From positions 42,862-106,861 of the forward strand of contig SCSX01000084.1 of the NCBI GenBank assembly GCA_004297825.1: a DNA stretch of 64,000 bases. Direction: 5' to 3'. Each line of letters opens with the position of its first letter. The first letter of the stretch is position 1. This document shows positions 15,417-32,679 of this stretch, piece by piece. Source of the stretch: Spirochaetota bacterium (GTDB lineage Bacteria; Spirochaetota; UBA4802; UBA5368). The translations under genes were made by a program, and so were the position numbers. The notes beneath the pieces were generated by a model. That model worked only from the letters and a program-made list of their open reading frames with translations, did no database searches and was not told the DNA's origin.

Positions 15417-15426
15417 CTAGAAAGAC

Positions 15427-15937: not shown

Positions 15938-15939
15938 GG

Positions 15940-16236: not shown

Positions 16237-16276
16237 TTACAAGTACGTGTTTCAGACGCTAAATGTCAAACCAAAA

Positions 16277-16293
16277 GTTACCATAATGGTAAC
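16277..16293. promoter_or_regulatory. Perfect inverted repeat GTTACCAT-A-ATGGTAAC next to a TTGACA -35 box upstream of higB
   Basis: 8-bp perfect arms read directly from the DNA, about 40-55 bp upstream of the higB start codon. A typical position for a TA autoregulatory operator. Confidence 0.45.
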
Positions 16294-16435
16294 ATTGTAA
16301 TGCATGGTTTTAACCCCCCCTCCCCCGCTCCTTACACATTTATCTCCCACCATTGCCCCTGGAAATTTTTCCCCGGGGTTGACCGTTCCACCGGATTTCC
16401 GTACTTTTTTTAACTGTGCAAGGGGAGGGGAAACG

Positions 16436-16945: not shown

Positions 16946-16964
16946 TCCCTGGAGCCACGCGGGC

Positions 16965-18107: not shown

Positions 18108-18116
18108 CGTTCTCTC

Positions 18117-18680
18117 CTATGGCGTGTACAGGGTGACGATGAGTACGGTCTTCGCCTTCCCGGGGTTCCTGAGCGAGTGACGGACGCTGGAATCGAAATG
18201 GAGCGTAGTGTCCTTTTTGAGATGGTGCTCCTTCTGCCCCACCTTCACCATGACCTCGCCCTTGAGCACGTAGACGAACTCCTCGCCCTCGTGCTGGTAG
18301 CGCTGGCCCGGAAGCTCCGAGCGCGGGGGGATGGTCACGCGAAACGAGCGCAGATGGCCCTTCATCGCGTTAGGCGTGAGCACCTCGTACTCGTAGGCCT
18401 GCTCGCGGCTCTTGAAGCCGCGAATCCGGTCCTTCTCGCGCTCCCGGTCCTTGCCAGTGTCCTTTTTCAGGAGTTCGCCCGGGTCTATCGTGAGCGCCCG
18501 CGCGATTTTCAGGATATCGCCCACCGGGGCGAAATCGGTGCCGTCCTCGATCCGGGCGAGGTGCGCCTCGGCGAGCCCGGTTTTCGCGGCCAGTTCCCCG
18601 ATGCTCATCTTGAGCTTGCTGCGCCTGGTCTTGAGCGCGCGCGCAAGCGCGCCTCCGTGCGGTGCGGGTGTTGAATGCAT
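18117..18680 (-). CDS. XRE-family HTH transcriptional regulator with C-terminal cupin domain
   Basis: HTH (MSIGELAAKTGLAEAHLARIEDG) plus a cupin_2-like beta-barrel C-terminus (FVYVLKGEVMVKVG..HLKKDTTLHFDSSVRH). The start could be the internal MSIGE. Confidence 0.65.
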   Translation of the reverse strand: MHSTPAPHGGALARALKTRRSKLKMSIGELAAKTGLAEAHLARIEDGTDFAPVGDILKIARALTIDPGELLKKDTGKDREREKDRIRGFKSREQAYEYEVLTPNAMKGHLRSFRVTIPPRSELPGQRYQHEGEEFVYVLKGEVMVKVGQKEHHLKKDTTLHFDSSVRHSLRNPGKAKTVLIVTLYTP

Positions 18681-18724
18681 GCGTACCTCCGCGTTTTCTG
18701 TTTCAATATGGGTGCGAAAAAAAA

Positions 18725-18790
18725 GGTGTAAGAATGGGGGAGAGGGGGATGGGATGAGATTGAGGAGATATCAGAATTATTAATAGCTAA
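18725..18790 (+). repeat. Purine-rich ~65-bp intergenic element, copy B
   Basis: GGTGTAAGAATGGGGGAGAGGGGGATGGGATGAGATTGAGGAGATATCAGAATTATTAAT. Shares the GTGTAAGAAT, GGGGAGAGGG, GATGAGAT and TCA(A)GAATT blocks with copy A. Confidence 0.5.
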
Positions 18791-18982
18791 GGCGATAGAA
18801 TGTTTCCCCGGTCGCCGCTTCCCGATTCTTACGAAACGTTTCGCAATAAATTAGTTTGATGGTAAAATTATGCAAGCAATAAACTGATAGGGTTGTCGTG
18901 CGGGTTGCCTTGGGAACGGCGGCAGGATACCTTATTCAAGATGACGTCTCGATCAATACCGGGGAATGCGGGAGGGTGCACG

Positions 18983-19501
18983 ATGCGGAACATCACGCCA
19001 CATCTATGGTTCGACAAGGAGGCCGCGGAGGCGGCCGTGTTTTATTGTTCGGTTTTCTCAAATTCGAGGATTACGGGGATCACTACCATCCACGAGGTCC
19101 CGAGCCCCACGGGGGACAGCGATATCGTCTCGTTCGAGCTCAGGGGCCTGCCCTTCATGGCGATCAACGCCGGTCCCCTTTTCACCTTCAACCCCTCGGT
19201 GTCGTTTTTGGTGAATTACGACCCGTCGCGGGAACGCGAAGCCTCCGAAAATATCGATGCGGCGTGGGAAATGCTTTTACCGGGCGGGACGGTCCTCATG
19301 CCCCTGCAGGAGTACCCGTGGAGCAGGCGATACGGCTGGATAAAGGACAAATACGGGCTTTCCTGGCAGGTGACTCCCACCATCATGGCCGAAATGATGG
19401 CGAAGGGCACACCCGAACAGGTCGCCCGCGTCACCAGGGCGTTCCTTCCCATGAAGAAGTTCGATCTGGGCGCGCTGCAGAAGGCGTACGAAGGGCCGTG
19501 A
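18983..19501 (+). CDS. VOC-superfamily protein (PhnB-like), second paralog
   Basis: 172 aa. HLWFDKEAAEAAVFY.., KDKYGLSWQV. GGGAGGGTG RBS. Confidence 0.6.
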   Translation: MRNITPHLWFDKEAAEAAVFYCSVFSNSRITGITTIHEVPSPTGDSDIVSFELRGLPFMAINAGPLFTFNPSVSFLVNYDPSREREASENIDAAWEMLLPGGTVLMPLQEYPWSRRYGWIKDKYGLSWQVTPTIMAEMMAKGTPEQVARVTRAFLPMKKFDLGALQKAYEGP

Positions 19502-19510
19502 CCGGCGTTC

Positions 19511-19546
19511 CCCGTAGAGACGCGATTAATCGCGTCTCTACGGGGA
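19511..19546. repeat. Perfect 36-bp palindrome (16-bp arms, TTAA centre)
   Basis: CCCCGTAGAGACGCGA-TTAA-TCGCGTCTCTACGGGG, read directly from the DNA. It lies between the convergent VOC (+) and etfA (-) genes. Confidence 0.6.
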
Positions 19547-19606
19547 ATTCACACCGCGTCTCTACAGGGAATTCACGCCGCGTCCCCACAGGGAATTCAC
19601 ACCGCA
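19547..19606. repeat. About 2.5 tandem copies of a 24-bp unit (AATTCACRCCGCGTCYCYACAGGG)
   Basis: The right arm of the palindrome resembles the unit. Copies 1 and 2 are complete; copy 3 runs into the etfA stop codon. Confidence 0.5.
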
Positions 19607-20628
19607 CGCGTTTCTTTTTTCAAGCGGGCGGTGAACCGCTTGAGGAATTCACGCGCATCGTCCGTCACCACGTAGTCCGATATGCCGTTGATGGGCGCGG
19701 AGGCGTCGTTGTTGATCGATACGATTATCTCCGAATCTACAATGGACGCCGTGTGTTGTATCTGGCCCGATATCCCGAATCCCAGGTAGAGCCGCGGGCG
19801 TATGGTCTTTCCCGTCTGGCCGATCATGCGCTCCTCGCCGCACCACCGGTTGAATACCGGCACCCGCGTCGCGCCGACCTCGCCGCCCAGGACATCCGCG
19901 AGATCGAACAGGCAGTCGAAGCCCTTTTTCGTCCCCAAGCCGCGCCCGCCCGCGACGACGACCGGGGCCTGCTCCAGCGGAACGCGCGGCTTGTCCCAGC
20001 GTGTGGGATTTTCCAAATGCGTGATTTTATAGTTAGAGAGATCGTAGTCGAAGGGGACGCGCACGACCTCCGATTTATTGCCGGGGAGCTCTTTCTTGTC
20101 AAACACCCCCTGCTGGACGGTCGCCATTTGAGGGCGCGCGTGCGGGCAGATGACGGTCGCGATCGCGTTCCCGCTGTAGGCCGGGCGCTTCATCACGAGG
20201 AGCCCCTTCCCGTATTCGTCCGAGTCCATGATCGAGAGCCCCGTGCAGTGCGAGGTGAGCCCGGTGGAGAAGCGCTGCGCGAGACGGGGCGCGAGGTCCG
20301 TTCCCGCCTCCGTGGAGGGAAAGAGCATGATCGAAGGGGCGTGGGCGCGGATAAGCCTTTCGATCATGTCGGGGAATATGGCGCCGTCGTAATGCTTAAG
20401 GGCGCGGTCGCTCGCGCAAAAGATCGCGTCGGGACCGAACCTTTCGATTACGGGAAGGTACCGCTCGGCGTCGAGCGCGAAGACGAGCGCGCACAGCCGG
20501 GACCCGAGCGTATCGGCGAGCGCGCGGCCTATGGTCAACAGCTCGCAGGAGCCCTCCAGCACGCGCTCGTGGTCCTGGATCTCGGCGAACACCCAGACGT
20601 CTTTTCCGTTATGTGCCATTGGTTTCAA
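19597..20628 (-). CDS. etfA: Electron transfer flavoprotein alpha subunit
   Basis: 343 aa. FAD-binding C-terminal domain (VVAGGRGLG, PRLYLGFGISGQIQH). Confidence 0.85.
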   Translation of the reverse strand: MKPMAHNGKDVWVFAEIQDHERVLEGSCELLTIGRALADTLGSRLCALVFALDAERYLPVIERFGPDAIFCASDRALKHYDGAIFPDMIERLIRAHAPSIMLFPSTEAGTDLAPRLAQRFSTGLTSHCTGLSIMDSDEYGKGLLVMKRPAYSGNAIATVICPHARPQMATVQQGVFDKKELPGNKSEVVRVPFDYDLSNYKITHLENPTRWDKPRVPLEQAPVVVAGGRGLGTKKGFDCLFDLADVLGGEVGATRVPVFNRWCGEERMIGQTGKTIRPRLYLGFGISGQIQHTASIVDSEIIVSINNDASAPINGISDYVVTDDAREFLKRFTARLKKETRAV

Positions 20629-21416
20629 TTTCTCAGTAGATTGTGTTTTTTCAGTTTGTGTATCAGACCCTCGATCTTTTCGTCAAGGGTGCCCGGGAGC
20701 GCCTCGCGCCCGCGCGCGTGCGTGAAGAGCTCGGTGCCGATCACCATGGTGGGCGACCCCGCGGCCCCGTACTCGTCAGCGCTCCCGCCGATATCGGACA
20801 ACCCCATGACGGCGATCTCCCTGCCCGTGCAGTTCTTGAGGTCCGCGAGGCGCGGCGCGCGCACCCGGTTCGCGTTCCTGCCGGCCGATACGAGCAGGGG
20901 CAGGGCGACGCGTATCTTCTGGTATTCGTGCCCGTAGAGCCGCTCGACGATCGCGTGCCCGTCCTCGATCCGGATGTCGTGAACCTGCGTGACGTGCGGG
21001 ATGCCCAAAAATTCAGAGAGCTGGTAGCCCACGTGCGCCGTGTTGCCGTCGATCGCCTCGAAGCCGGTCACGACGACGTCGAACGCGCCGAGCTTCGTAA
21101 TGGCGCGCGCGAGTATCTTGCTCGTCACGAGCGAATCGGAACCGGCGAAACACGGACCGCTCACGAGCACGCAGCGGTCCACACCCAGGGCGTAGGCCTC
21201 CGCGAGCACGTCGGACGCCTGGGGTGGTCCCATGCTTATCGCCGTGACGCTCCCGCCGCACGCGTCGCGGAGGGCGAGCGCCGCCTCGATCGCGTGGAGA
21301 TCGTCGGGGTTCGTTATGTTCTCCGCGGACGCGCGGTCGAGCACGCCCGTCTTCGGATCGAAGGACGCGCGGTGCGTGTCGGGAACCTGTTTGATGCAGA
21401 CTATAATTGATAGCAT
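20625..21416 (-). CDS. etfB: Electron transfer flavoprotein beta subunit
   Basis: 263 aa, starting MLSIIVCIKQVPD (canonical EtfB N-terminus). The stop overlaps the etfA start (ATGA). Confidence 0.85.
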   Translation of the reverse strand: MLSIIVCIKQVPDTHRASFDPKTGVLDRASAENITNPDDLHAIEAALALRDACGGSVTAISMGPPQASDVLAEAYALGVDRCVLVSGPCFAGSDSLVTSKILARAITKLGAFDVVVTGFEAIDGNTAHVGYQLSEFLGIPHVTQVHDIRIEDGHAIVERLYGHEYQKIRVALPLLVSAGRNANRVRAPRLADLKNCTGREIAVMGLSDIGGSADEYGAAGSPTMVIGTELFTHARGREALPGTLDEKIEGLIHKLKKHNLLRN

Positions 21417-21427
21417 GGTGGCTGTTT

Positions 21428-22585
21428 TTAAATCTTCGAAAATTCCTTCACGATCGCGTTGCCGATTATGATTTTCATGACCTCGGAGGTGCCTTCGTAT
21501 ATCTGGGTAATCTTCGCGTCGCGGAAGAAGCGTTCCACCGGGAGGTCTTTTACATAGCCGTAGCCGCCAAACACCTGGAGCGCCTCGGTGCACGTGCGCA
21601 TGGCGACGCCCGACGCGTAGAGCTTGCACATGGCCGATTCCACGGAAAAGGGGAGCCCCTTGTCTTTTAAACATGCGGCGCGGTAGACGAGGAGCCGCGC
21701 CGCGTCGAGCTCCGTGCGCATCTCGGCGAGCTTGAATGAAATTCCCTGGAATGAACCGATAGGCCTTCCGAACTGGGCGCGCTCGGTCGCGTAGGTCGCG
21801 GCGGCCTCGTACGCCGCCATCCCGATCCCCAGCGCCTGCGCCGCAATACCGATGCGCCCGATGTCGAGCGTCTGCATCGAAATACTGAAACCGTCCTCGA
21901 CGCGGCCCAGTACGTTTTCTTTCGGGACGCGCACGTTGCTGAAAAAAAGCTCGGAGACCATGTTGCCGCGCATGCCCATCATGTCTTCGATTTTCCCCAC
22001 CTCGAAGCCGGGCATTGATTTCTCGACTATGAAGATGGCGATGCCGCCCGTCTTCTTTCCGGGGTCCACTGTCGCGCCCACGAGGAAGACCTCGCCGGTG
22101 CCGCCGTTGGTGACGAACGCCTTCTGGCCGTTCAGCACGTAGCCGTCCCCGTCGGGAACCGCGGTCGTACGGATGGAAGCGGCGTCGGAGCCCGCCTGCG
22201 GCTCGGTGATCGTGAAGCCGCCCAGTTTTTTCCCGCGGGCAAGATCCGGTGCGAGGCGCTCGACCTGTTCCGGCGTTCCGAATTTCAGTATCGGCGCGAG
22301 GCATACGGAGTTGTGCACGGTCACGCCCAGGCCCACGGCGGCGCTCACGCGCGAGAGCTCCTCGATTACGATCGCGTAGCTTACCGTGTCGAGGTCCGCG
22401 CCGCCGAACCTCTCCGGCGCCTGTATCCCCCACATGTTGAGGCGCCCCATCTCGCGCACGACCTCCGGGGGAAGCGGCTTCGAATCGCGGTCGAGCGTGT
22501 TCGCCCATTCGTCGAGCGTCCCGGTCGCGAACTTCCGCACACTCTTGCGGATCATGAGCTGGTGCCTGGCAAGGGTGAAATCCAT
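21428..22585 (-). CDS. Acyl-CoA dehydrogenase (short/butyryl-CoA DH-like), co-operonic with etfBA
   Basis: 385 aa from MDFTLARHQLMIRK. ACAD signatures GGFTITEPQAGSD, YGGYGY, IYEGTSEV. Forms an ACAD-etfB-etfA operon. Confidence 0.85.
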   Translation of the reverse strand: MDFTLARHQLMIRKSVRKFATGTLDEWANTLDRDSKPLPPEVVREMGRLNMWGIQAPERFGGADLDTVSYAIVIEELSRVSAAVGLGVTVHNSVCLAPILKFGTPEQVERLAPDLARGKKLGGFTITEPQAGSDAASIRTTAVPDGDGYVLNGQKAFVTNGGTGEVFLVGATVDPGKKTGGIAIFIVEKSMPGFEVGKIEDMMGMRGNMVSELFFSNVRVPKENVLGRVEDGFSISMQTLDIGRIGIAAQALGIGMAAYEAAATYATERAQFGRPIGSFQGISFKLAEMRTELDAARLLVYRAACLKDKGLPFSVESAMCKLYASGVAMRTCTEALQVFGGYGYVKDLPVERFFRDAKITQIYEGTSEVMKIIIGNAIVKEFSKI

Positions 22586-22821
22586 GACGATAGATATGAA
22601 GGAAGCGCGCCCGGGTCTGTCAAGCAATGAATTATTTTTTTGGGGTTGGGGGCCGATGCGCACTACGGCGGGGAAGAGCGCCTGGGGAAGGAGTGATGAC
22701 GACGAGGAGGACGGGTACCTGGCGGATCGATCATTTTAAAAAAGGGTTGTTTTATTAAGAGCAATATTAAAGTTTTGTACAATGGTGCAATCATAAAATC
22801 ACATATATAAGAGGTGTTGTC

Positions 22822-24228
22822 ATGAAAACGGCCCATGACTTTTTTCACTCTTACCTGTCCGAAAACATATCAGACGCCGACACCCTTGAGCGGATGCGCA
22901 ACGTCATCTCCGAATTCTCAACACGCGCCCCAAAAATCATCGTAATGAAATGTATCGACGGCCGGGTCCATGGGAGCAAGGCCAAGGGCTATCCCCCCAC
23001 CACCGTCCGGTTCGGGCGTACCGACGGCAACAAGGTATCGCTCGATATGAGCAATTTCTGGTACTGGAACCGTATTGACCGGGTCGTCAAGGACGCCCAC
23101 TTCAATACCCCGGAAACGCCGGCCCTCTTCATAGCCTTCATGCACCATTCACCGAAAGGCCACGGCTGCGCCTCGCATAACAGTGACGATGCAGCGGCCC
23201 TTGTATCGGTGGAAGAGCAGGTCGCGGCGGTCCGCAAAACATACAAAGAATCCGAGCTCTACGTCATGGGCGGCGATACCAACACCGACATCATGGCCGA
23301 AACGCTCATCTTTCCCGGCAGTTACCGTATCGATACGGAAAACATCATTCAGTACTGCAATTTAAAAAAACCGCGCGACGTGTTCCACGAGGCGTTCCTG
23401 AAAAACAAAATCGACGATGTCGCTACCTCAAGAAATGTGGACCACAAGACGCCGGATGATCTGCTTAACGGGATCAATCCGGAGTATTTCACAAACTTCC
23501 AGACCTGCCTCAACATGGAAAACTATCTTCTTCGCGAGATTACCACGATGCTCAACAAGGACCGGGGCGATCTCAAGCGGCTCATCCGACCGGACATCCT
23601 GGACTATATCTTCGTAACCCTTGATCGGGTCAAAATACCTAAAACGCTCGTCGGCCCCATCCTCTACCAGGTAATATGGAATATCACGTATGCCCTGTAC
23701 CAGATGAAGCTCGTAGACCACCTCTCGCCGGAAGAGCTGGAACGCCATCTCGATCATGCCGAGGAGCTGGTCTGCTACGGCGACGGGTTCGAGACGCTTC
23801 CGCGCAATAAGGCCGTGCTGGTCAAGACCGGACGGGGGGACGACGTCGATGCGCTTAATGTGTCGATGAATGTGCTTACGAAAAACCGCAAGCGTTATCA
23901 ACAGGACCACAAGCTCCTTGTGCATATAAACATCGAGGTGATGGGCGAGATGATGTCCTGGGACGATTTTAACGATAACGTCGGCTCCCGCATTCTTACC
24001 ATGCGACGGAACGTGGATTTTGTTTTCGGAAACGACGTGGCGATCCTCACATCGTATTCCTACCGCGATCAGAAGCGTTTTTACCCGGTCAAGATTTCCA
24101 AGGACGATGCCCGCATAGTGTACCCCGCGGACGTTATCTCGGAGATCAATTCCTCGCTCAAGTTCAGCAACATTTCGCTTAAGGCCCAGGAGGCCATCTA
24201 TAAAGCGAGTTTTATCGGTAAACTTTAA
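22822..24228 (+). CDS. Hypothetical 468-aa cytoplasmic protein, low-GC orphan
   Basis: No signal peptide or TM segment. Contains KIIVMKCIDGRVHG and FMHHSPKGHGCASH blocks. GC visibly lower (~50%) than both flanks. No family recognised. Confidence 0.5.
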   Translation: MKTAHDFFHSYLSENISDADTLERMRNVISEFSTRAPKIIVMKCIDGRVHGSKAKGYPPTTVRFGRTDGNKVSLDMSNFWYWNRIDRVVKDAHFNTPETPALFIAFMHHSPKGHGCASHNSDDAAALVSVEEQVAAVRKTYKESELYVMGGDTNTDIMAETLIFPGSYRIDTENIIQYCNLKKPRDVFHEAFLKNKIDDVATSRNVDHKTPDDLLNGINPEYFTNFQTCLNMENYLLREITTMLNKDRGDLKRLIRPDILDYIFVTLDRVKIPKTLVGPILYQVIWNITYALYQMKLVDHLSPEELERHLDHAEELVCYGDGFETLPRNKAVLVKTGRGDDVDALNVSMNVLTKNRKRYQQDHKLLVHINIEVMGEMMSWDDFNDNVGSRILTMRRNVDFVFGNDVAILTSYSYRDQKRFYPVKISKDDARIVYPADVISEINSSLKFSNISLKAQEAIYKASFIGKL

Positions 24229-24254
24229 TGCCTGTTGCCTCATGAATGCGGTTC

Positions 24255-24288
24255 GGCGGGAAGGGCGACGCACACCTCCCTTCCCGCT
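24255..24288. terminator. GC-rich hairpin (10-11 bp stem) between convergent genes
   Basis: GGCGGGAAGGG-12 nt-CCCTTCCCGCT. No U-tract, so at most a hairpin-type or bidirectional terminator. Confidence 0.3.
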
Positions 24289-24321
24289 GTGTGCCCGGGA
24301 GCAGCCGGGGTACGATCGTAG

Positions 24322-25077
24322 TTACCTTCCCATGAATTTTAAAAGTCCGTTCACCACCGTGAGCGGATGTACTGGACATCCGGGTATGTAGAGATCGATA
24401 TGGTGTTTATCCAGAAATTCGCGATTGAGCGCCGCCGATCCCTGGAATACGCCGCCGGATATCGCGCAACTCCCTGCGAGAATCACCACCTTCGGGTCCG
24501 GTGTGCACATATAGGCATCCTCCAGGGCCGGGGCCATGTTTTCCGAAATTGGTCCTGTGATCAGGATTCCGTCCGCGTGACGCGGAGAGGCTACGAATTC
24601 TATCCCAAAGCGTCCCATATCGAAGTTCGGATTGCCGCAGGCATTAAGCTCCCACTCGCACCCATTGCATCCGGCGGCGGATACCTGGCGAAGTTTGAAG
24701 GAGGCGCCAAACAGCCGTTTTATCTCCTGCCTCGCTTCGATGGCGCCGGAGAGGTACTCTTCCGCGTTTTTTGCGCCGTCCACCACCAGGTAATCCCTCG
24801 ACGTTGACGCGATCTTGTGAAAAGTCGAAAACGTGATCGATTTTTCCGGGCACTCCCGCGCGCAGTCGCCGCAGAAGACGCATTTCCCCAGGTCGATCGC
24901 AAGCGGCCGCGCCGAAATCGCCCCCACGGGGCAGACCTCACGGCACGCGTCACACCTGCCGCATTTCGATCCATCCACGGCGGGGAGCCCTCTGAAGGGA
25001 GGGCGTATCTCGGCCCTGGTCACGTCAGGAATCGCCTGTTCGCCCTGGTTTTTCCTTATTTTCAGCGTATTAATCAT
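24322..25077 (-). CDS. Fused 2x[4Fe-4S] ferredoxin (NuoI/HyfH-like) plus NuoB/HyfI-like small subunit
   Basis: Start MINTLKI (AAGGAG RBS overlapping the upstream stop). Two CxxCxxCxxxCP motifs (CGRCDACREVCP, CVFCGDCARECP), then a NuoB-like domain with the four cluster cysteines (GCNGC, GSCA, GCP). Confidence 0.8.
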   Translation of the reverse strand: MINTLKIRKNQGEQAIPDVTRAEIRPPFRGLPAVDGSKCGRCDACREVCPVGAISARPLAIDLGKCVFCGDCARECPEKSITFSTFHKIASTSRDYLVVDGAKNAEEYLSGAIEARQEIKRLFGASFKLRQVSAAGCNGCEWELNACGNPNFDMGRFGIEFVASPRHADGILITGPISENMAPALEDAYMCTPDPKVVILAGSCAISGGVFQGSAALNREFLDKHHIDLYIPGCPVHPLTVVNGLLKFMGR

Positions 25078-25087
25078 GGTGCGCTCC

Positions 25088-26578
25088 TTACAGGTCGTTG
25101 CCGCAATACGAAAGATTGAAGCTCTTATTACAGAGCGGAAAGTCGGAGATGCCATTCCCGCGCAGCGCATAGGCCAGCCCGTACCAGTTCTGCAGGGACG
25201 GGTCTTTTATCTTGTATCGGACGATCTTCCCCTTTTTCCCGGTTACGGCGCAGTGTACGATTTCGCCGCGCCATCCTTCCGTCATTGAAACGACCAGGCT
25301 GTCGGAGGGAAGTTTGTGAAGCGGCGAGATGAGCGGCTTATCGTCCGGAAGCCCGTCGAGCTGTTCAAAGATGAATTCGATCGATTGTTTTATCTCAATG
25401 TAGCGCATATAGGAGCGGGCGAAGACGTCGCCGCTGAGCATAGTGCGCTTGTGAACGGGATAAAACCGATATATGCCAAAGGGATGATCGGCCCGCACGT
25501 CGAGTGACACGCCAGAGGCGCGTCCCGCGGGTCCTACAAGGCCCATTTTCGTAGCGGCCTCAAAATCAACCGTACCGGTATGGTCCAGGCGAGAGAGAAC
25601 GCTCGCCATCTCGAACATCGCCTCACCCATGAGCTCCACGTCCCTGGAAACCTTGGTGAGTTTTTCCTTGAATTCCCTGACGTGATCCGGCTTAAAATCG
25701 AAGGCGACGCCGCCCTCGCGCACGAGTCCCCTGCCGAAGCGGCTTCCCGTGAGGCTAAGGAGGGTGTTGATCACCAGGGTGCGGGTTACGCCGAAGACCG
25801 CATTACCCAGCAGATAGGCGACGTCGTTCGCGATCGCGCCGAGGTCCCCAATGTGGATGGCCGCGCGCTCCATTTCCAGCGCAATGGCGCGGATCGCCTG
25901 CGCCCGCCGGCTTATCTCAACGTTCGACAGCGCTTCAATGGCGTCCGCGTACGCGGTGGCGTGACCGATCACCGTATCTCCCGCGATCGACTCCGCGAGA
26001 TGGATGCCCGACCGGTCATAACGCTCGACCATGAGGCGTTCCACACCGCGGTGCTGGTAACCGAGCTGTATCTCGAGATGGTGCACGTCCTCACCCTGGC
26101 ACATGAAACGGAAATGCCCGGGCTCGATCACACCCGCATGCACGGGACCCACGGCTACCTCGTGCACCTCCTCTCCCTTCATGGTGAAGAACGGATAACT
26201 CTCCATCGTTTTCTCATGGTCGGCGCGGTCATGCCCGTAGCGCACCCCCTTGAGCCAGGGATGCCCCTCCGGCGTTATGCCCGTGTCCTCGTAGAACTCC
26301 CGCTCGAAGATATGGAAACGCGGCGCCTCGGGGGTAATTGCCTGGTAACGGCGTTCCCTGCCCATCGCGCCGGATGATATATAAAGCCGGTTTGCTTCGT
26401 CGTCGGCGAGTACCGCGTACACTGTCTCCGTCCTGCCGTTCGGCATTCCAAAGAATGCGACGACCCTTCTGCCCTCGCGGCATCGCCCGACGATCTGGGC
26501 GCGAAGTTCGTCCATTGTCATTTCCGGAATGTCGGCCAGCCTTACAGGCCGATTATTTTTCGTATATATCCATTTCAT
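25088..26578 (-). CDS. Fused NuoC-NuoD / HycE-HyfG-like 'large subunit' lacking NiFe-binding cysteines
   Basis: 496 aa. NuoC-like N-terminal part, then a NuoD/hydrogenase large-subunit fold (HFRF, LGYQHRGVE). Only 5 Cys in total and no CxxC pair. The position matching the N-terminal R-x-C-G-x-C-x-x-x-H block reads ESIAGDTVIGHATAY. The C-terminus is ..LCNKSFNLSYCGNDL, with no DPCxxC. Confidence 0.75.
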   Translation of the reverse strand: MKWIYTKNNRPVRLADIPEMTMDELRAQIVGRCREGRRVVAFFGMPNGRTETVYAVLADDEANRLYISSGAMGRERRYQAITPEAPRFHIFEREFYEDTGITPEGHPWLKGVRYGHDRADHEKTMESYPFFTMKGEEVHEVAVGPVHAGVIEPGHFRFMCQGEDVHHLEIQLGYQHRGVERLMVERYDRSGIHLAESIAGDTVIGHATAYADAIEALSNVEISRRAQAIRAIALEMERAAIHIGDLGAIANDVAYLLGNAVFGVTRTLVINTLLSLTGSRFGRGLVREGGVAFDFKPDHVREFKEKLTKVSRDVELMGEAMFEMASVLSRLDHTGTVDFEAATKMGLVGPAGRASGVSLDVRADHPFGIYRFYPVHKRTMLSGDVFARSYMRYIEIKQSIEFIFEQLDGLPDDKPLISPLHKLPSDSLVVSMTEGWRGEIVHCAVTGKKGKIVRYKIKDPSLQNWYGLAYALRGNGISDFPLCNKSFNLSYCGNDL

Positions 26579-26596
26579 GATTTTACAATCCCCCTG

Positions 26597-28003
26597 TTAA
26601 AGTAACGCCGCGGCTTTCTGGAAAAGGGCCTGCACGAAGAATGGCATGGACACGCCCATGGAGAGCAGAAGCGCAAGGAAGGCGAACTGCGGCAGGTATG
26701 AAAGCACCCCCGCGCCGTGCGCCGCCGGGCCGTCGGTGGAGGCGCCAAAGCTCATCCGCAGCACCGCTTTGCCGATTCCTGCCATGTTGATCGTCAGTAA
26801 AAGGAGAAAGAGGACCATGTGGACGAACATCCCCGCGTCAAACATCGACTTCGCCGCAAGGAACTCGCTCAGGAATATGGGAAACGGCGGGATGCCCACG
26901 ATGCCGGCGAAGCAAAGCATCCAGAGCCACCCCGTTGCGGGTTCGGACCGGAGCAGTCCCCGTACGTCCTCGATCTGCTTGGATTTAAAGCGGTGCAGGA
27001 TATTCCCCGAGGTGAGAAAGAAAGCCGCCTTGGTCAGCGAGTGCGCCGCCAGGTGGAGCATGGCGGCGAAAAGGCCCGCCCCGCCGACCCCGAGGCAAAT
27101 GGCGATGATCCCCATGTTCTCGATGGAAGAATAGGCGAGCATTCGCTTGTAGTTTTTGATATTGATGATGTATACCGCGGAAACGAAAATCGAGATGAAG
27201 CCGATCACGAGCAGAAGGTTGTCTGCATACCATCGCATTCCCGCCAGACTCATGAGCTTGTTAATACGCGCGATACCCAATAATGCCGCATTGAGAAGCG
27301 TCCCCGAGAGGAGTGCCGAAACCGGCGAGGGCGACTCCGAGTGTGCGTCGGGCAGCCAGGCGTGCACGGGGGCGAAACCCACCTTGGTGCCGAACCCCAC
27401 GAGCATTAATGGAAAGGATAGCTTCAGCCAGTAGGGGGTAATATTCCGCGCTCCCGCGTAAAGGTCGTCAAAGAAAAGAGAGCCCGAATCTCCCAGCCCC
27501 ATCGAAAGGACGATGATGCCGACGAATGCCAGGGCGATTCCGATCGAACAAATAAACAGGTATTTCCAGGTCGCCTCGAGCGAGGCCTCCGAATGGCTGA
27601 AATAAATAAGATACGAGCTCGAAAGCGTCGTGGCCTCAACGAAGACCCAGAGGAGCGCGAGGTGCGTGGAAAGAATCACCCCGGTCATGGAGGCGACGAA
27701 AACCAGGATATTCGCGGTAAAAAGCGACTGGCTCTTGGCCGGGGCTTCATTGTTTTTCAGGTAGTCGACAAGAAATACCGCCACCCCGAGGAAGACGACG
27801 GCCAGGACAAGAAGAAAAAGTACGTTAAGATCGTCGATTCTGAAATACGGGGTGAACGATGCCGGGTTGAAATACAACAAAATAGAGACAGCCATGAATG
27901 CCGCCGCATAGGACACCGTCACGATGATATTCAGCGCCTTGTTCCTCACAACGAGAACTACTATAGAAAGCGCTATCGGGAGAAATAGTAAAGTTTCTAT
28001 CAT
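26597..28003 (-). CDS. NuoN/HyfF-like antiporter-type membrane subunit
   Basis: 468 aa, polytopic. Mrp/complex-I antiporter-like signature (FGTKVGFAPVHAWLPDAH). Confidence 0.75.
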   Translation of the reverse strand: MIETLLFLPIALSIVVLVVRNKALNIIVTVSYAAAFMAVSILLYFNPASFTPYFRIDDLNVLFLLVLAVVFLGVAVFLVDYLKNNEAPAKSQSLFTANILVFVASMTGVILSTHLALLWVFVEATTLSSSYLIYFSHSEASLEATWKYLFICSIGIALAFVGIIVLSMGLGDSGSLFFDDLYAGARNITPYWLKLSFPLMLVGFGTKVGFAPVHAWLPDAHSESPSPVSALLSGTLLNAALLGIARINKLMSLAGMRWYADNLLLVIGFISIFVSAVYIINIKNYKRMLAYSSIENMGIIAICLGVGGAGLFAAMLHLAAHSLTKAAFFLTSGNILHRFKSKQIEDVRGLLRSEPATGWLWMLCFAGIVGIPPFPIFLSEFLAAKSMFDAGMFVHMVLFLLLLTINMAGIGKAVLRMSFGASTDGPAAHGAGVLSYLPQFAFLALLLSMGVSMPFFVQALFQKAAALL

Positions 28004-28007
28004 GGCC

Positions 28008-28643
28008 TTAATCCTTTAATTTCGCGAGCGTGTTGATGTGGGTGTCGGAGTACGAATCCTGCACTTTATTGATGAATAGCCCGAGCAGGTACACGGCGAT
28101 AAAGATGTCCAGGAGCACGCCCATCGCGACGATGAAGGGCATTTCGCGCGCAATGGAAAGCGCCAGGAGAAAAATGCCGTTTTCGAGCATCATGTATCCC
28201 ATTACGTGGGTAATGATTTTTTTGCGCGAGATAATTATGAACAGTCCCGTTACAATAGTGGAGATGGAAATGCCGAAGTAGAAGGGTCTGATATTACTTA
28301 CCGTCCCCGCGGACCAGTAGGCGATGTAGAAACCGGCAGCGAAAATCGCGGTCGTGATCGCGAGGGATGAATGATTTGTTACATAGGGATCAATCTCGCG
28401 GTAGATGCCGTTTTTGCGGATTACATACATGAGAAAGATCGGAATCGCTATGGCCTTGACGACGAGCGTTTCAAATGAAAGGAATATCAGGTTCGGAAGG
28501 TTGGTCGTTCCGTAATCGAACAATACCAGGAGAAACAGGATTACCCCCTGTGCCGCTATCGCCTTGACATAGCTTTCAATGCGCGTGGTGACTGAAACGT
28601 ACAACATGGTGAGTCCGAAAAGTATTATTATGAATTGGATCAT
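28008..28643 (-). CDS. HyfE-like small membrane subunit
   Basis: 212 aa from MIQFIIILF. About 6 TM helices. Size and operon position match HyfE. Confidence 0.55.
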   Translation of the reverse strand: MIQFIIILFGLTMLYVSVTTRIESYVKAIAAQGVILFLLVLFDYGTTNLPNLIFLSFETLVVKAIAIPIFLMYVIRKNGIYREIDPYVTNHSSLAITTAIFAAGFYIAYWSAGTVSNIRPFYFGISISTIVTGLFIIISRKKIITHVMGYMMLENGIFLLALSIAREMPFIVAMGVLLDIFIAVYLLGLFINKVQDSYSDTHINTLAKLKD

Positions 28644-29560
28644 TTGATGCCTCCCGCAATAAAAAGCACAACGGTTGAAATGATGATGGCCGAAATCGCG
28701 GTCATGAAGAGGAGAAACTGCGGCACATGCGTCATGCGCAACCGCGCTGTGACCGATTCGATGGTACCGATGACGACGGCCAGGAGCGCCTGTACGGCGA
28801 TCATTAGGCCCAGGGAAGCCCACAGGGGAAAGGCTGCCGGGATTACGAGGTTCGCAATGAGGGCGCCTATGACGACCATCTTCATGCCCGCCGCGTACAT
28901 GATGAATCCCATGTCGGGGCCGGAATTGTCGAGGACCATCACCTCGTGTATCATAGTGAGTTCAAGGTGGGTATTCGGGTCGTCCACGGGCACGCGGCAT
29001 CCCTCCGCAAGGAGCATGATGAAAAGTGCGATGATCCCCAGTGGCAATACGAGTATGGCCACATCGCCCCCCTTGGCGATTTCGAATATTCGTTCGAATG
29101 ACAATCCCCCGGATATGAGGCCCAGCGAGGCGATGATGATGAAAAATGCCGGCTCCACCAGCGCGGCAAAAGTCACCTCGCGGCTTGCCCCCATTCCCTC
29201 GAAACTCGAACCGGTATCCAGCGCGCCTACGACGGTAAAGAATCTCCCAATCCCGAGAACATATGCGAAGAGGATAAAATCCGCCTCGAAGGATATGACC
29301 GATTTCCCTCCCGCCAGCGGCGCGATGAGCCCAGCCGTAATGACGGCGGCGAACGTTACCGACGGGGCCAGGCGAAAGACGAAGGATGAAGTAGAGCTTA
29401 TCACTTCACCCTTTTTCATGAGCTTCATGAAGTCCCTGAAAGGCTGCATGATAGACGGGCCCTTCCGCCCTGCCCAGCGGGACTTTATTCGATTTATAAA
29501 CCCAAGAAATAAAAAGGGCATTATAAGAAGCAATGCTATGTTAATGATCGTTATCATCAT
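28640..29560 (-). CDS. NuoH/HycD/HyfC-like membrane subunit
   Basis: About 306 aa from MMITIINIALL. NuoH-type loop motif (RIKSRWAGRKGPSIMQPFRDFMKL). Confidence 0.75.
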   Translation of the reverse strand: MMITIINIALLLIMPFLFLGFINRIKSRWAGRKGPSIMQPFRDFMKLMKKGEVISSTSSFVFRLAPSVTFAAVITAGLIAPLAGGKSVISFEADFILFAYVLGIGRFFTVVGALDTGSSFEGMGASREVTFAALVEPAFFIIIASLGLISGGLSFERIFEIAKGGDVAILVLPLGIIALFIMLLAEGCRVPVDDPNTHLELTMIHEVMVLDNSGPDMGFIMYAAGMKMVVIGALIANLVIPAAFPLWASLGLMIAVQALLAVVIGTIESVTARLRMTHVPQFLLFMTAISAIIISTVVLFIAGGIK

Positions 29561-29561
29561 T

Positions 29562-31553
29562 TCAGACCACCATGATCCAGAGAGTAATCGAGATGAGGAA
29601 TACCAGGCCGTACAGGATGTACTGCTGGGTACTCCCGCTTTGAATCCAGGTAAAGGCATTCATGGACCGTTCGATCATCGAAAGGACGGGGTTGATGATT
29701 CCCCGCTCAAAGCGATCCTCCGCGTGGCTTTCAAAACCGGCTTCCCCGGGAAATAGTCCCTGCGGTTTCGTAAAGTGTATCTTCCAGGAAAAGAGCGGGC
29801 GGAAAATTCTTAAGAACGGCGCTGCGTAGGAAGAGGCGGTATACTGCATCCGTACGTTTCCGGCCTGGTATCCGCAGTCCCATGTTTTATACGTGTAGAC
29901 GCTCCGCTTTCTAAGAAGCAGGGCTCTCAAGAAAAAGATTGCGGCGAAGAGGCCTATGAAGACTGCCAGCCCTTTCGAAACGCCTCCGAGGGTTATAAGA
30001 TAGGGTGATGTGTCCAACGCTTTACCGCCTTCAGGCATAAGCTGCTGCGCCACGAGGGCGACGCCGGACAGGGCGTATTGCGGAAGAACGCCGATCAGGA
30101 CGATCAGCCCCATCTGGATGGCCATGGCGGCCTTCATCGAAAAAGAAACCTCGACCGGAGCTTCATGATACTCGCTTCGGGGGCTTCCCAGGAATACGAC
30201 GCCAAAGACCTTGGTGAAGCACAACAACGCCATGGCGCCGATAAACGCAAGGGACGCGAATGAGAAAACCATTGCGATTGAAAGCAGGGTGTTCCCGGCT
30301 GTGAGACCTTTCAACATCCCCCAGTAAATAAAAAACTCGCTCACGAAGCCGTTGAATGGCGGGAGCCCGCAAATAGCGATCGAACCCACCAGGAAGGCTG
30401 TGGCCGTAAATGCCATGAACTTAACGATGCCGCCCAGCTTTTCGATATCGAGGAGGTGCGTTTTTTGATACACCCCGCCAGTGGCGAAAAAGAGCAGCGA
30501 CTTGAAAATCGAATGGTTGAGCACGTGCAATATCCCGCCGGAATATCCGAGAAGCGCGAGCGGGACGTTCCCGTAAGCGGTTCCCAGCATGCCCAGTCCG
30601 ATGCCAATCCCGATGATACCGATGTTTTCAACGCTGTGATAGGCCAGGAGCCGCTTGATGTTGTGCTGGGCGATGGCGTAGGCGACGCCAAGGATGCCCG
30701 ATATCACCGAAATGATCAGGACGAAATAGGCGATTTCGAAGGCCGGCGTCTGTATCAGAAGCACGGTCCGGAGAATCCCGTATATCCCGGTTTTGATCAT
30801 AATTCCCGACATGAGGCCGGAAATGTGGCTCGGTGCGGCGGGATGCGCCTTGGGAAGCCAGGTATGAAAGGGGACGAAACCCGCCTTCGTGCCGAAGCCT
30901 ATGAACAAGAGCACGAAGACCAGGCTCGCCAGCCCGCGGTGCTCCTGGAATACGGTGGTGAATGAAGCAAAATCGAAACTGCCCGATTGAAACGCGGCGG
31001 CGAGGAACCCGACCATGAGGAAAAGAACCCCGATATGCATGGCGATCAGGTAGTTGATCGAAGCCTGATACACCTCCTCGCTCTCGTTTTCAAACGCCAC
31101 GAGAAAGAAAGAAGAAAGCGACATGATCTCCCAGGCGATGAGGAAGGCAACCGCGTTCTGAAGGGCGATTACGGAAAGCATCGAGGCGATAAGGGCGGCA
31201 AGGAAGAAGAAGTGCGATGTTGTTCCGTTCTTTTTCCCATAGTACGGCTTCATATACCCGATTGCGTATACCGTTCCCAGGAAGCTGATCCCGGCGATGA
31301 CAAGGGAAAAAAAAGCTGCGAGCTTATCGATCACCAGTCTTACCGTGCCGGTGGGGTACGAAAGGACATATGCCGCCGTGATCGGACTTTCCTCGAAAAG
31401 CGCGTTAAGCGAAACCCATGCGATCAGCGCCGCGCCGCAGCCGGTTCCCAAAGCCACGGCCCAGCTCTTCAGCCGCTCGGGGAGAACCATGGAAACGAGG
31501 CCCCCGGCAAGTATAATGCCGATACCGGCTATGAACAGGTCCATCATCTCCAT
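29562..31553 (-). CDS. NuoL/HyfB/HycC-like antiporter-type membrane subunit
   Basis: 663 aa, polytopic. Antiporter-module signature (GFGTKAGFVPFHTWLPKAH). Confidence 0.8.
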   Translation of the reverse strand: MEMMDLFIAGIGIILAGGLVSMVLPERLKSWAVALGTGCGAALIAWVSLNALFEESPITAAYVLSYPTGTVRLVIDKLAAFFSLVIAGISFLGTVYAIGYMKPYYGKKNGTTSHFFFLAALIASMLSVIALQNAVAFLIAWEIMSLSSFFLVAFENESEEVYQASINYLIAMHIGVLFLMVGFLAAAFQSGSFDFASFTTVFQEHRGLASLVFVLLFIGFGTKAGFVPFHTWLPKAHPAAPSHISGLMSGIMIKTGIYGILRTVLLIQTPAFEIAYFVLIISVISGILGVAYAIAQHNIKRLLAYHSVENIGIIGIGIGLGMLGTAYGNVPLALLGYSGGILHVLNHSIFKSLLFFATGGVYQKTHLLDIEKLGGIVKFMAFTATAFLVGSIAICGLPPFNGFVSEFFIYWGMLKGLTAGNTLLSIAMVFSFASLAFIGAMALLCFTKVFGVVFLGSPRSEYHEAPVEVSFSMKAAMAIQMGLIVLIGVLPQYALSGVALVAQQLMPEGGKALDTSPYLITLGGVSKGLAVFIGLFAAIFFLRALLLRKRSVYTYKTWDCGYQAGNVRMQYTASSYAAPFLRIFRPLFSWKIHFTKPQGLFPGEAGFESHAEDRFERGIINPVLSMIERSMNAFTWIQSGSTQQYILYGLVFLISITLWIMVV

Positions 31554-31556
31554 GGC

Positions 31557-32231
31557 TTACCTCTCCCTCCATTCCTTTTCAGCCCGTTCTATATAGTAGA
31601 GAACCACCTCTTTCTTCGGGCGATCCCGAAGCGTTTTCAGAAAATCTTCCTGCTTGCAGAGAAAAGAAATCTTCGACAGGATTTCCAGGTGCCGTTTCGC
31701 GTTAGACGAAATAATGATGAAAAGAGCCTGCACCGGCTCGCCGTCCAGGGCCCTGTAGTCGACGGGGTTTTTCAAAAAACATATGGACACGGATTCGTCG
31801 TCGATGTCCGATATAATCGGATTGCGCGGATGCGGTAGGGCGATCCCCTTGCCCACGGCGGTCGTCATCATTTCTTCCCGCTGAAGAAGCGACGCGAGCA
31901 CCGTGTCCTTGTCAATGCTTTTCGGCAGGGGGATCGTATTTACTACGCCGTCGATCACCCCCCGAACCGTTGCTCCCTCGATGCCGTAATGGATATCGCC
32001 CCGCTTGATGAGGTCGATAAGGGACACCGGCCTTGTCGTCAGGGTGAGGTCCAGTATCTTTTCGGATACGGCAATGTCGTTTCTCAAGATCCATTCGTTC
32101 ACTTCCGCCTTGTTAAAGAAGTACTGGTTTTTGATCTTGTACGACGGCATCTTTTTCTCGTTGATCCACTGCAGAATGGTCTTCTCCGGCACGTCGAACA
32201 GGTCGACGACGTCCTTCATTTTTAAATCCAT
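31557..32231 (-). CDS. Transcriptional regulator: N-terminal excisionase/MerR-type HTH fused to a PTS EIIA type-2 (EIIA-Ntr/fructose) domain
   Basis: 224 aa. HTH (VPEKTILQWINEKKMPSYKI). EIIA-2 domain with a candidate phospho-His in GKGIALPHPRNP. Ends 3 nt before the NuoL-like gene. GAGGAG RBS. Confidence 0.65.
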   Translation of the reverse strand: MDLKMKDVVDLFDVPEKTILQWINEKKMPSYKIKNQYFFNKAEVNEWILRNDIAVSEKILDLTLTTRPVSLIDLIKRGDIHYGIEGATVRGVIDGVVNTIPLPKSIDKDTVLASLLQREEMMTTAVGKGIALPHPRNPIISDIDDESVSICFLKNPVDYRALDGEPVQALFIIISSNAKRHLEILSKISFLCKQEDFLKTLRDRPKKEVVLYYIERAEKEWRER

Positions 32232-32252
32232 CGTGCTCCTCTTCTCGAATCG

Positions 32253-32591
32253 TTATTGCTTATTTTTAATGATGTCTTTGAATGGAATAATCTTCCGATA
32301 TTCCTCTTCATTGTTTTTCTTAGCTTCCCAAAGCGAGATGTCCGACTGCATCCCCAGCCAATATTCCACGGTGGTGTCAAAAAACCGCGCGAGCCTGATT
32401 GCCGTATCGTGAGTGATGGCCCGTTTTCCCAGGACCACCTCGTTGATACGCACTCTCGTTATTCCCAGGTGGTCGGCGAGATCCTGCTGGGTGATCCCCA
32501 GCGGCTCAAGGTATACTGACTTTAATACTTCGCCCGGATGCCGCGGGCGCCGGTCATTGCCGGAATCCTGGTTTTCCCTGTTTTTTTTCAT
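32253..32591 (-). CDS. higA: HigA-family addiction-module antidote protein (VapI-type XRE HTH)
   Basis: 112 aa. HPGEVLKSVYLEPLGITQQDLADHLGITRVRINEVVLGKRAITHDTAIRLARFF..WLGMQ is a close match to the HigA/VapI antidote family. Confidence 0.75.
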   Translation of the reverse strand: MKKNRENQDSGNDRRPRHPGEVLKSVYLEPLGITQQDLADHLGITRVRINEVVLGKRAITHDTAIRLARFFDTTVEYWLGMQSDISLWEAKKNNEEEYRKIIPFKDIIKNKQ

Positions 32592-32679
32592 CCACTCCCC
32601 GCGCGATCAATTTTGAGCGAGAATGTGCGGACATGTATCGAGCAACGTTGCATATTGCAAGCAAAATATAATGGCCCTC

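Follow-up and report, generated by a model that had tools for sequence, protein, structure and literature searches.

CsoSCA, the carbonic anhydrase (CA) of carboxysomes, is a true CA with a kcat of ~1e4 per s. Its active site is formed by C173, D175, R177, H242, C253, H397, and E399 (Sawaya 2006, as tabulated in PMC9164163), and cryo-electron microscopy has identified C173, H242, and C253 as the zinc ligands; the C-terminal domain of the cyanobacterial enzyme is an allosteric site. A vicinal cysteine pair, Cys283/Cys284, found in ~80% of CsoSCA, switches the carboxysomal enzyme off under reducing conditions. Homologs encoded outside carboxysome loci have been named CsoSCA2 (Sutter, Kerfeld & Scott 2022, PMC9164163). 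That study, which collected sequences by their matches to Pfam08936, described a compact variant with a two-helix N-terminus of ~40 aa, an active and a defunct domain, and all catalytic residues kept; it reported CsoSCA2 in heterotrophs as well as autotrophs, and it asked whether these proteins form "other types of enzyme complexes." Here we describe a gene at positions 22822..24228 (plus strand) of a 64,000-nucleotide stretch of contig SCSX01000084.1 from a Spirochaetota bacterium (assembly GCA_004297825.1); the whole stretch is called the window below. The product is assigned to a kind of protein that is already known, the CsoSCA-type β-class CA in its non-carboxysomal, CsoSCA2-like form. 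New with respect to the literature searched are the divergent clade in which it falls, which carries an insertion and is invisible to curated family models; the taxonomic range of that clade, which includes pathogenic and intermediate Leptospira and bacteria of the candidate phyla radiation (CPR); and a recurrent, rearrangement-proof linkage to the operon of an energy-converting hydrogenase-related (Ehr) complex.

The open reading frame (ORF) begins with ATG and encodes 468 aa, as given in a preliminary description of the window, and its product is identical to GenBank TAL31058.1, a "hypothetical protein [Spirochaetes bacterium]" encoded on a 110.6-kb contig of a metagenome-assembled genome. 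An AlphaFold2 model of the protein, built on an alignment of 32 sequences, had a predicted local distance difference test score (pLDDT) of 90.4 and a predicted TM score of 0.90. The preliminary description had proposed a Foldseek search with such a model for a β-CA fold, including the duplicated CsoSCA type, and this search was positive. The five best matches in the Protein Data Bank (PDB) were all CsoSCA (E values of 5.5e-13 to 4.9e-12, probability 1.0, 442 to 462 aligned columns, TM score of ~0.5). They were followed by the internally duplicated β-CA of Porphyridium, 1ddz (E = 5e-7), and then by more than 25 ordinary β-CA chains with probabilities of 0.8 to 1.0; the top 50 structural matches contained no carbonyl sulfide (COS) or carbon disulfide (CS2) hydrolase. 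By this search the model has the α/β fold of the β-CAs, with tandem active and defunct β-CA-like domains in one chain, the arrangement that marks the CsoSCA subclass, and CsoSCA alone matched it over the full length. Given this fold match, the new metalloenzyme family that had been offered as an alternative is not needed.

All seven CsoSCA active-site residues have counterparts in the alignment: C44, D46, R48, H108, C116, H312, and E314 align with C173, D175, R177, H242, C253, H397, and E399, respectively. In a set of 106 full-length family members drawn from genomes, metagenomes, and an exhaustive search of representative sequences, the first six residues are invariant (106/106) and E314 is kept in 101, conservation well beyond what chance would give. 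The idea of a β-CA/CsoSCA-like zinc site, raised in the preliminary description from a hydrophobic strand followed by C-x-D-x-R, is therefore supported. The strand and motif, KIIVMK-C44-I-D46-G-R48-V, are present as it read them, the C44-to-R48 segment (22951..22965, plus strand) supplying the predicted first zinc ligand and the Asp-Arg dyad in the alignment to 2fgy. The His/Cys cluster (FMH108HSPKGHGC116AS) also lies where it was placed, 64 and 72 residues past C44; its H108-x7-C116-A-S-H119 stretch (23143..23178, plus strand) would provide the second and third zinc ligands, H119 being the equivalent of CsoSCA H256. The spacing of the His and Cys had been taken as a sign of a divergent site, but H-x7-C is the CsoSCA pattern H242-x10-C253 minus 3 residues. 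The remaining pair lies in H312-A-E314 (23755..23763, plus strand), where the first domain meets the second; "HAEE" at residues 312 to 315 aligns with the CsoSCA "HAER" that holds H397 and E399.

The catalytic domain is preceded by a segment of 35 residues (22822..22926, plus strand) that DSSP assigns in the model to two helices (residues 2 to 24 and 26 to 35). Within the catalytic domain, residues ~185 to 295 (23374..23706, plus strand) form a family-specific helical insertion, a stretch left largely unaligned by hhalign; its helices have pLDDT values of 92 to 97 in the model, show no transmembrane-like hydrophobicity, and are absent from compact CsoSCA2-type proteins. Residues 315 to 468 (23764..24225, plus strand) make up the C-terminal "defunct" β-CA-like domain, as judged from the full-length structural alignment to CsoSCA, the hhalign coverage, and conservation; this domain contains neither a CxDxR nor an H…C motif. 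One of its residues, H368 (23923-23925), is invariant in the 106 members, and C318 (23773-23775) is kept in 69. A second metal site formed by C318 and H368 was considered and rejected, given the partial conservation of C318 and the fact that neither residue is at a ligand-equivalent strand end. The protein has cysteines only at positions 44, 116, 179, 229, and 318 and has no transmembrane segment (maximum 19-residue Kyte-Doolittle mean, 1.05). In a group of distant members of 534 to 600 aa (P0138, P0142, P0149, P0150, and P0151), six catalytic residues are kept and Ala or Gly replaces E314; activity may be altered or lost in this subgroup.

The gene is real and under strong constraint. Against relatives with 83 to 93% protein identity and ~76 to 78% DNA identity, dN/dS (the ratio of nonsynonymous to synonymous substitution rates) is 0.02 to 0.08, with synonymous sites near saturation. 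Conservation is unusually strong beyond the catalytic residues, as illustrated by 93% amino acid identity at 76% nucleotide identity and by many invariant loop residues. A Shine-Dalgarno sequence, AAGAGGTG, read directly from the sequence at 22809..22816 (plus strand), stands 5 nt before the ATG.

Carboxysomal CsoSCA (Halothiobacillus neapolitanus 2FGY/9G4T; Cyanobium 8THM), the best full-length structural match, has the seven active-site residues and the type of H…C spacing in common with the window protein, at an identity of 13 to 16%. The two differ in the parts that serve the carboxysome. Only 35 residues precede the catalytic domain here, compared with ~144 aa in the H. neapolitanus enzyme, and this short segment stands in place of both the N-terminal domain and the Rubisco-binding peptide; the hook motif is missing as well. 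Where carboxysomal CsoSCA has vicinal Cys283/Cys284, the window protein has no CC dipeptide, and in the alignment a gap stands opposite the "HCCGAS" segment. The genomic surroundings also differ from those of a cso locus, in which Rubisco, CsoS2, and shell protein genes are found nearby: the neighbors here are an acyl-CoA dehydrogenase (ACAD)/Etf operon and the Ehr operon. Probes for Rubisco and bacterial microcompartment proteins gave no match in the window or in family loci L001 to L079, which led us to reject a carboxysome or Rubisco context. No Rubisco, formate dehydrogenase, or carboxylase is present among the annotated ORFs of the window; Pfam assignments for 30 of its ORFs describe heterotrophic genes, with an acyl-CoA metabolism that comprises acyl-CoA ligases, 2-hydroxyacyl-CoA dehydratase components, two ACADs, EtfAB, and an aldehyde dehydrogenase. 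Because the N-terminal domain, the Rubisco-binding peptide, the Cys pair, and the Rubisco and shell genes are all missing, the protein fits the non-carboxysomal, CsoSCA2-like kind and not the carboxysomal enzyme.

The features described for CsoSCA2 are all found here: a location outside carboxysome loci, a two-helix N-terminus, an active and a defunct domain, and retained catalytic residues. In profile searches, full-length family members scored below 1e-57, after which there was a gap to a compact group at ~1e-8. Beyond the members of the family and their fragments, the tail of the search consisted of proteins of 340 to 400 aa with E values of 1e-8 to 1e-3, including a 351-aa Ectothiorhodosinus "Carboxysome Shell Carbonic Anhydrase." These tail proteins pass the Pfam CsoSCA_cat threshold and keep the same catalytic residues, and because of this, and of the name of the Ectothiorhodosinus protein, we take them to be compact CsoSCA2-type proteins. 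Profile-profile alignment (hhalign) of the family with them gave a probability of 99.65% (E = 3.6e-25) over 330 columns that span both domains. The family members are longer, at 465 to 480 aa, owing to the ~110-aa helical insertion. They also fall under the Pfam threshold used to collect CsoSCA2, and the link to Ehr is absent from PMC9164163, in which there is likewise no mention of Spirochaetes, Leptospira, Planctomycetes, Myxococcota/"Delta," CPR, or a hydrogenase-like context. By profile, then, the family is homologous to CsoSCA2 and forms a discrete, more distant cluster that fails the Pfam threshold; on these sequence comparisons we regard it as a more divergent branch that stands apart within the CsoSCA/CsoSCA2 lineage and has a helical insertion of its own.

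The preliminary description had called the protein an orphan that matches no nameable family. This did not hold: apart from weak but correct matches to Pfam CsoSCA_cat and TIGR02701, a search of 5.8 billion clustered proteins (90% clusters) yielded at least 183 homologs at E ≤ 1e-3, most of them full length at 465 to 480 aa, and scanning a single genome for each species gave 74 species-level genome loci. An exhaustive profile search of 1.84 billion 50% representatives gave 57 matches at E ≤ 1e-10, a number that rose to no more than 95 when the cutoff was relaxed to 1e-3. Homologs occur in Spirochaetota (Leptospira interrogans among them), "Deltaproteobacteria"/Myxococcota, Planctomycetota, and Peregrinibacteria. 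In the databases nearly all are named "hypothetical protein"; a few UniRef entries read "Carbonic anhydrase," and one 90%-cluster mate is a "carboxysome shell carbonic anhydrase" in GenBank. Surveys of CA genes miss the family because of these names and because its members score below the Pfam and NCBIfam thresholds.

The taxonomic labels of metagenome-assembled genomes (MAGs) are unreliable in this family. Proteins 80 to 93% identical to that of the window (L006 to L021) carry the labels Spirochaetota, Leptospirales, Deltaproteobacteria, Bradymonadales, Myxococcota, and Nitrospirae, a mixture that reflects either horizontal movement of the module described below or inconsistent MAG taxonomy or binning. 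Leptospira is represented by loci L037, L039, L041 to L046, L048, L051, and L075 and by proteins P0063 to P0085. The species recovered include L. interrogans, L. kirschneri, L. noguchii, L. borgpetersenii, L. alexanderi, L. adleri, L. ellisii, L. gomenensis, L. kmetyi, L. fainei, L. fluminis, L. haakeii, and others; the named species are ones that we take to be pathogenic or intermediate (P1/P2). No saprophytic Leptospira, such as L. biflexa, turned up in this pattern-based, non-exhaustive scan. Some CPR genomes have two adjacent family paralogs (677 and 491 aa in L053; 812 and 504 aa in L057), one of which carries an extension of 160 to 300 aa past the CA domains, for which no Pfam match was found; P0123 (713 aa) and P0130 (801 aa) are also long.

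The gene context of the family was analyzed over ±10 kb around each match. Ehr subunit genes were present within these flanks at 26 of the 74 species-level genome loci, of which 25 have the large subunit and one, L026, is partial, and likewise in six metagenome loci (L084, which duplicates L006; L085; L087; L088; L098; and L110, which is partial). An all-against-all clustering of every neighboring ORF identified Ehr subunits as the sole neighbors conserved across lineages; where Ehr was absent, the same clustering gave no other cross-lineage partner, only lineage-limited patterns. In the window the CA-like gene and the Ehr operon converge, as had been noted, with 93 bp between their stop codons. 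A blastn comparison with the closest relatives (L006, L008, L012, and L050) aligned a single block, 22807..32670, at 76 to 78% nucleotide identity. This cohesive CA-Ehr module of ~9.9 kb begins shortly before the CA start codon and ends shortly after the regulator gene of the operon. Its flanks are unalignable and differ even between relatives that share 93% identity, and the ACAD-etf neighbors are absent from the relatives compared.

The linkage persists through changes of gene order. The two units are convergent in the window, in L006, L008, L009, L012, L047, L050, L087, and L098, and also in Leptospira (0 to 3 intervening genes in that genus); they are divergent in L022 to L025; and they are codirectional in L010 and L088, where the CA-like gene is upstream of the regulator, and in L013, where it is downstream of the NuoB-like gene. 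Pairwise distances for the CA-like protein and the Ehr large subunit are correlated (Spearman coefficient, 0.89). In L013 the CA-like protein nests in the window clade (81% identity) and the Ehr large subunit is far outside it (46%), so that a window-type CA gene must have come to adjoin another type of Ehr at least once; mismatches of this kind were also found in L010, L087, and L088. We conclude that the CA-like gene and the Ehr operon behave as one unit. Since their adjacency survives rearrangement and re-forms after transfer, selection for linkage is indicated. As a separate observation, L007, a 93%-identical relative, has an insertion of ~7 kb between the CA-like gene and the Ehr operon (11400-18432).

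The operon of the window occupies 32231..24322 on the minus strand and has seven genes, a regulator and six subunit genes. The first encodes a regulator-like protein with HTH_17 and PTS EIIA-2 domains by Pfam (31557..32231, minus strand), and a gene of this type holds the same position in L006, L008, L009, L012, L047, L050, L010, L013, and L080 to L082. Next come, all on the minus strand, a NuoL-like antiporter subunit (29562..31553; Pfam Proton_antipo_M and Proton_antipo_N); a NuoH-like subunit (28640..29659; NADHdh, E = 6.5e-33); a small membrane subunit (28008..28823); a NuoN/M-like antiporter subunit (26597..28003; Proton_antipo_M, E = 1e-54); the NuoC/D-like large subunit (25088..26578; Complex1_49kDa); and a ferredoxin domain with two [4Fe-4S] clusters fused to a NuoB-like domain (24322..25170; Oxidored_q6 and Fer4 families). 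The small membrane subunit has no Pfam match in the window; it is kept in related loci, and its ortholog in L080 is NuoK-like, matching PF00420 (Oxidored_q2). The mechanical ORFs at 24322-25170 and 28008-28823 are 30 to 55 codons longer than their orthologs (226 to 275 aa and 206 to 216 aa, respectively) and overlap the genes upstream, and the true starts of these two genes are probably internal.

The large subunit is 100% identical to a protein named "MAG: hydrogenase [Spirochaetes bacterium]." Its L1 region reads AESIAGD(T/S) in 14 lineages and has no NiFe-motif cysteines; the C-terminal Cys is not conserved, with N, V, A, or S instead in several lineages. In its sequence, then, the convergent operon is a true Ehr, a group 4 [NiFe]-hydrogenase/complex I-like gene set without NiFe ligands, as the preliminary description had it and as the published definition requires. 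Published Ehr complexes include examples from spirochetes and CPR bacteria. The only partner proposed in those descriptions is a formate dehydrogenase, whereas the neighbor here is a CA-like gene, and we found no CA as an Ehr partner in the literature searched.

The proposed function follows the CsoSCA precedent. The protein would be a soluble cytoplasmic single chain, with the only active site in the first of its two β-CA-like domains. C44, H108, and C116 are the predicted zinc ligands; the D46-R48 dyad would orient the zinc-bound water, H312 and E314 would complete the bicarbonate pocket from the second-domain junction, and the second domain would act as a defunct duplicate in place of the partner subunit of an ordinary β-CA dimer. 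The expected reaction is the reversible one, CO2 + H2O <-> HCO3- + H+. Because the N-terminal domain, the Rubisco-binding peptide, and the vicinal-Cys redox switch are missing, activity would be expected in a reducing cytosol. We consider CA activity likely. As to the partner, Ehr, with which the CA is inherited, is a membrane complex of the ferredoxin type, complex I-like and ion-translocating, in which the NiFe site has been lost. Machines of the complex I type draw cytoplasmic protons for redox chemistry and for translocation, and a CA at the cytoplasmic face of Ehr could supply or remove protons through a fast CO2/HCO3-/H+ equilibrium; it might also trap metabolic CO2 as bicarbonate.

Taken as a whole, we favor an active, cytosolic zinc CA of the CsoSCA lineage that is functionally tied to Ehr as an accessory, and on the sequence and model evidence we give this joint claim a probability of about 0.55. 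Several observations weigh against it. The sequence link to CsoSCA is weak, yet every match was to the CsoSCA family: Pfam CsoSCA_cat (PF20686) matched with E = 7e-4 and 19.5 bits, under the gathering score of 21.5, and this was the best value among 32 members, 9 of which had E < 0.01; TIGR02701 matched with E = 1.7e-3 and 17.3 bits, far under its cutoff of 241; and PDB entry 2fgy (H. neapolitanus CsoSCA) was reached at E = 2.7e-3 with the single sequence and at 3.2e-4 with the family profile. CsoSCA2 is "yet to be studied" according to PMC9164163, published descriptions assign no reaction to Ehr, and what in particular Ehr would gain from a CA is a matter of inference. At most loci the CA-like gene and Ehr lie on opposite strands and so are not cotranscribed there. 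Approximately two-thirds of the loci have no Ehr in the fetched flanks, and none lies within 10 kb in Planctomycetota, Peregrinibacteria, several Leptospiraceae MAGs, and some 70 to 81%-identical relatives; close relatives such as L015 to L021 are among those without it. Conversely, all four of the sampled Ehr loci of the same layout (57 to 64% large-subunit identity; from Spirochaetota, a Melainabacteria-type organism, and other MAGs) lack a CA-like gene within 10 kb, and the Ehr large-subunit family, with at least 8000 matches at E ≤ 1e-30, far exceeds the CA family (183; 57 among the 50% representatives). Because many Ehr operons have no CA gene and many CA genes no nearby Ehr, the CA is at most a dispensable accessory to a subset of Ehr complexes.

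These last observations would equally suit a stand-alone housekeeping CA in the cytosol, which provides carboxylases with bicarbonate or buffers pH and whose adjacency to Ehr is inherited synteny or hitchhiking in a transferred block. Such an enzyme would keep the canonical reversible active site, including His312, as is the case here, and the acyl-CoA metabolism of the window makes bicarbonate-dependent carboxylations plausible. It would leave unexplained why the only neighbors conserved across lineages are Ehr subunits, why the adjacency holds through at least four gene orders and is found also after the reassociation of window-type CA genes with a distant Ehr type (L013; L010, L087, and L088), and why the module's flanks are unconserved even in 93%-identical relatives; we therefore regard a housekeeping role as rather unlikely. 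A β-CA fold with another job, either COS or CS2 hydrolysis or the sensing of CO2 or bicarbonate to regulate Ehr, is also conceivable. The Cys-His-Cys plus Asp-Arg site serves known β-CA-derived COS and CS2 hydrolases. Conservation far beyond the catalytic residues, the invariant H368 in the "defunct" domain, and the allosteric role of the C-terminal domain in cyanobacterial CsoSCA could likewise be read in this direction. Set against them are the nearest characterized relatives, which are true CAs, the retention of all seven CA active-site residues, and the lack of any COS or CS2 hydrolase among the top 50 structural matches, and we consider such a function very improbable.

The linkage to a complex I-like operon also brings to mind vectorial CAs. 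In this alternative, the protein would be the CO2-hydrating head of Ehr, docked on the NuoL/NuoN-like subunits, where ferredoxin/redox-driven or proton motive force-driven proton movement makes hydration one-way and bicarbonate accumulates. DabA, the vectorial CA (DAB/DAC) that works on the NuoL-like DabB, combines a CsoSCA-like two-domain β-CA fold and one Cys2His zinc site, as predicted for the window protein. A 2026 preprint reports CsoSCA as the closest structural homolog of DabA and suggests that DabA derives from CsoSCA or a shared ancestor, so the fold has been recruited earlier to a NuoL-like partner. DabA, too, is genetically tied to a NuoL/Mrp antiporter-family protein, in heterotrophs and pathogens as well, just as the CA-like gene is tied to Ehr; the partner here is a full multisubunit Ehr with an Fe-S/NuoB/NuoD module and the CA is usually not cotranscribed, whereas DabA is partnered by DabB alone. 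CupA/CupB of the cyanobacterial NDH-1MS/MS' complexes form a CO2-hydrating module on a complex I-type machine with NuoB/D/H- and NuoL/M-like subunits and ferredoxin-type input, which is the same core subunit set as that of Ehr. CupA is not a β-CA and binds zinc at an unusual site in which one ligand is an Arg, and its physical attachment has been shown, whereas the tie of the CA-like gene to Ehr is a genomic one.

These two precedents for a CA module on complex I-type antiporter subunits, the robust genomic linkage to Ehr, and a DabA-like build, a two-domain pseudodimer that has a single active site and whose catalytic domain carries a helical insertion specific to the family, all speak for a vectorial CA. 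The features that set DabA apart are lacking, however. In DabA the active site is deeply buried and Leu replaces the bicarbonate hydrogen bond donor; that donor, His312 (CsoSCA His397), is kept in 106 of 106 members here. For the three DabA-specific coupling motifs, GI(A/G)GFFG, NNPYESALDCGACGG, and DW(XXX)RPEWGL, the best fuzzy matches in the CA-like protein need 3 to 5 substitutions or do not exist, and the Pfam DabA family (PF10070) gave no match to it at E ≤ 10. No membrane-inserting amphipathic helix-loop-helix, or hydrophobic "finger," was found in a crude hydropathy test, in which the highest hydrophobic moments fell in polar helices and the maximum 19-residue mean stayed at 1.05. DabA-type features were rejected on all four counts, namely, Pfam family, motifs, Leu substitution, and membrane finger. 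In addition, the gene is usually outside the Ehr operon, many Ehr operons lack it, and the hosts seen look heterotrophic. A DAB- or Cup-like energy-coupled CO2 pump is possible but disfavored, and we consider it improbable.

The linkage bears on several questions. For the function and partner of CsoSCA2, which is widespread, an accessory CA of Ehr, the reading that we prefer, gives a testable clue; for the reaction of Ehr, which is common in uncultured and cultured bacteria, the CA neighbor is a clue in turn. The module is present in culturable Leptospira, including L. interrogans, which makes it directly testable. A CsoSCA-type enzyme kept beside NuoL-like subunits also has a bearing on the origin of vectorial CAs. 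If the vectorial alternative were true, this would be a further independent union of a CA with a complex I-type machine after Cup/NDH-1MS and DAB, in heterotrophs that include pathogenic Leptospira; CO2 hydration would then be the first function assigned to Ehr, and the protein would be an extant link connecting DabA with soluble CsoSCA-type enzymes.

Regarding the sequence setting, the preliminary description had called the gene compositionally distinct from its neighbors. Its G+C content is indeed lower (52.5%, compared with 61.7% for the ACAD gene and 56.9% for the NuoB-like gene next downstream), but strong distinctness was overstated, the difference being modest and within the range of the window, whose mean is 57.6% with 2-kb bins from 50% to 64%. 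The whole CA-Ehr block has 49 to 59%. Acquisition of a low-G+C orphan by horizontal transfer was rejected on these grounds, the composition being normal for the window and common to the whole block and the family being broad. Promoter-like and terminator-like sites were at chance level, including a promoter-like TTAAGA-17-TACAAT at 22755-22783, and there were no Rfam matches in 22000-33500.

Other neighbors of the family are confined to particular loci. In Peregrinibacteria/Peribacteria (L057, L059, L066, L067, and L069), F-type ATP synthase genes (AtpA-like of 504 aa, gamma, and epsilon) lie within a few kilobases; this further tie to membrane bioenergetics is confined to a single lineage, where inherited synteny may account for it. 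At Syntrophia-type loci (L004, 7419-13206, and L021), the CA-like gene has major facilitator superfamily transporters on both sides and not Ehr; in L004 an antiporter-like gene (PF10125 and PF00361) starts ~10 kb away, at the edge of the locus. On the other side of the CA-like gene in the window is the ACAD-etfBA operon, and the divergent orientation reported for the two was borne out. Two ACADs and EtfAB are encoded there (16965-22663); an ACAD gene is also found near the CA-like gene in L035 (~10629), and in L080 one (14423-15574) adjoins a CA-less Ehr operon, together with CoA-transferases and a thioesterase. The adjacency of ACADs could reflect a route of electron input into Ehr or coincidence. 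Further upstream in the window, 1539-7607 (minus strand) encodes two acyl-CoA ligases and two 2-hydroxyacyl-CoA dehydratase D-components, with a GntR/FCD regulator at 7734-8441, and the cluster looks like an anaerobic 2-hydroxyacid or amino acid fermentation module.

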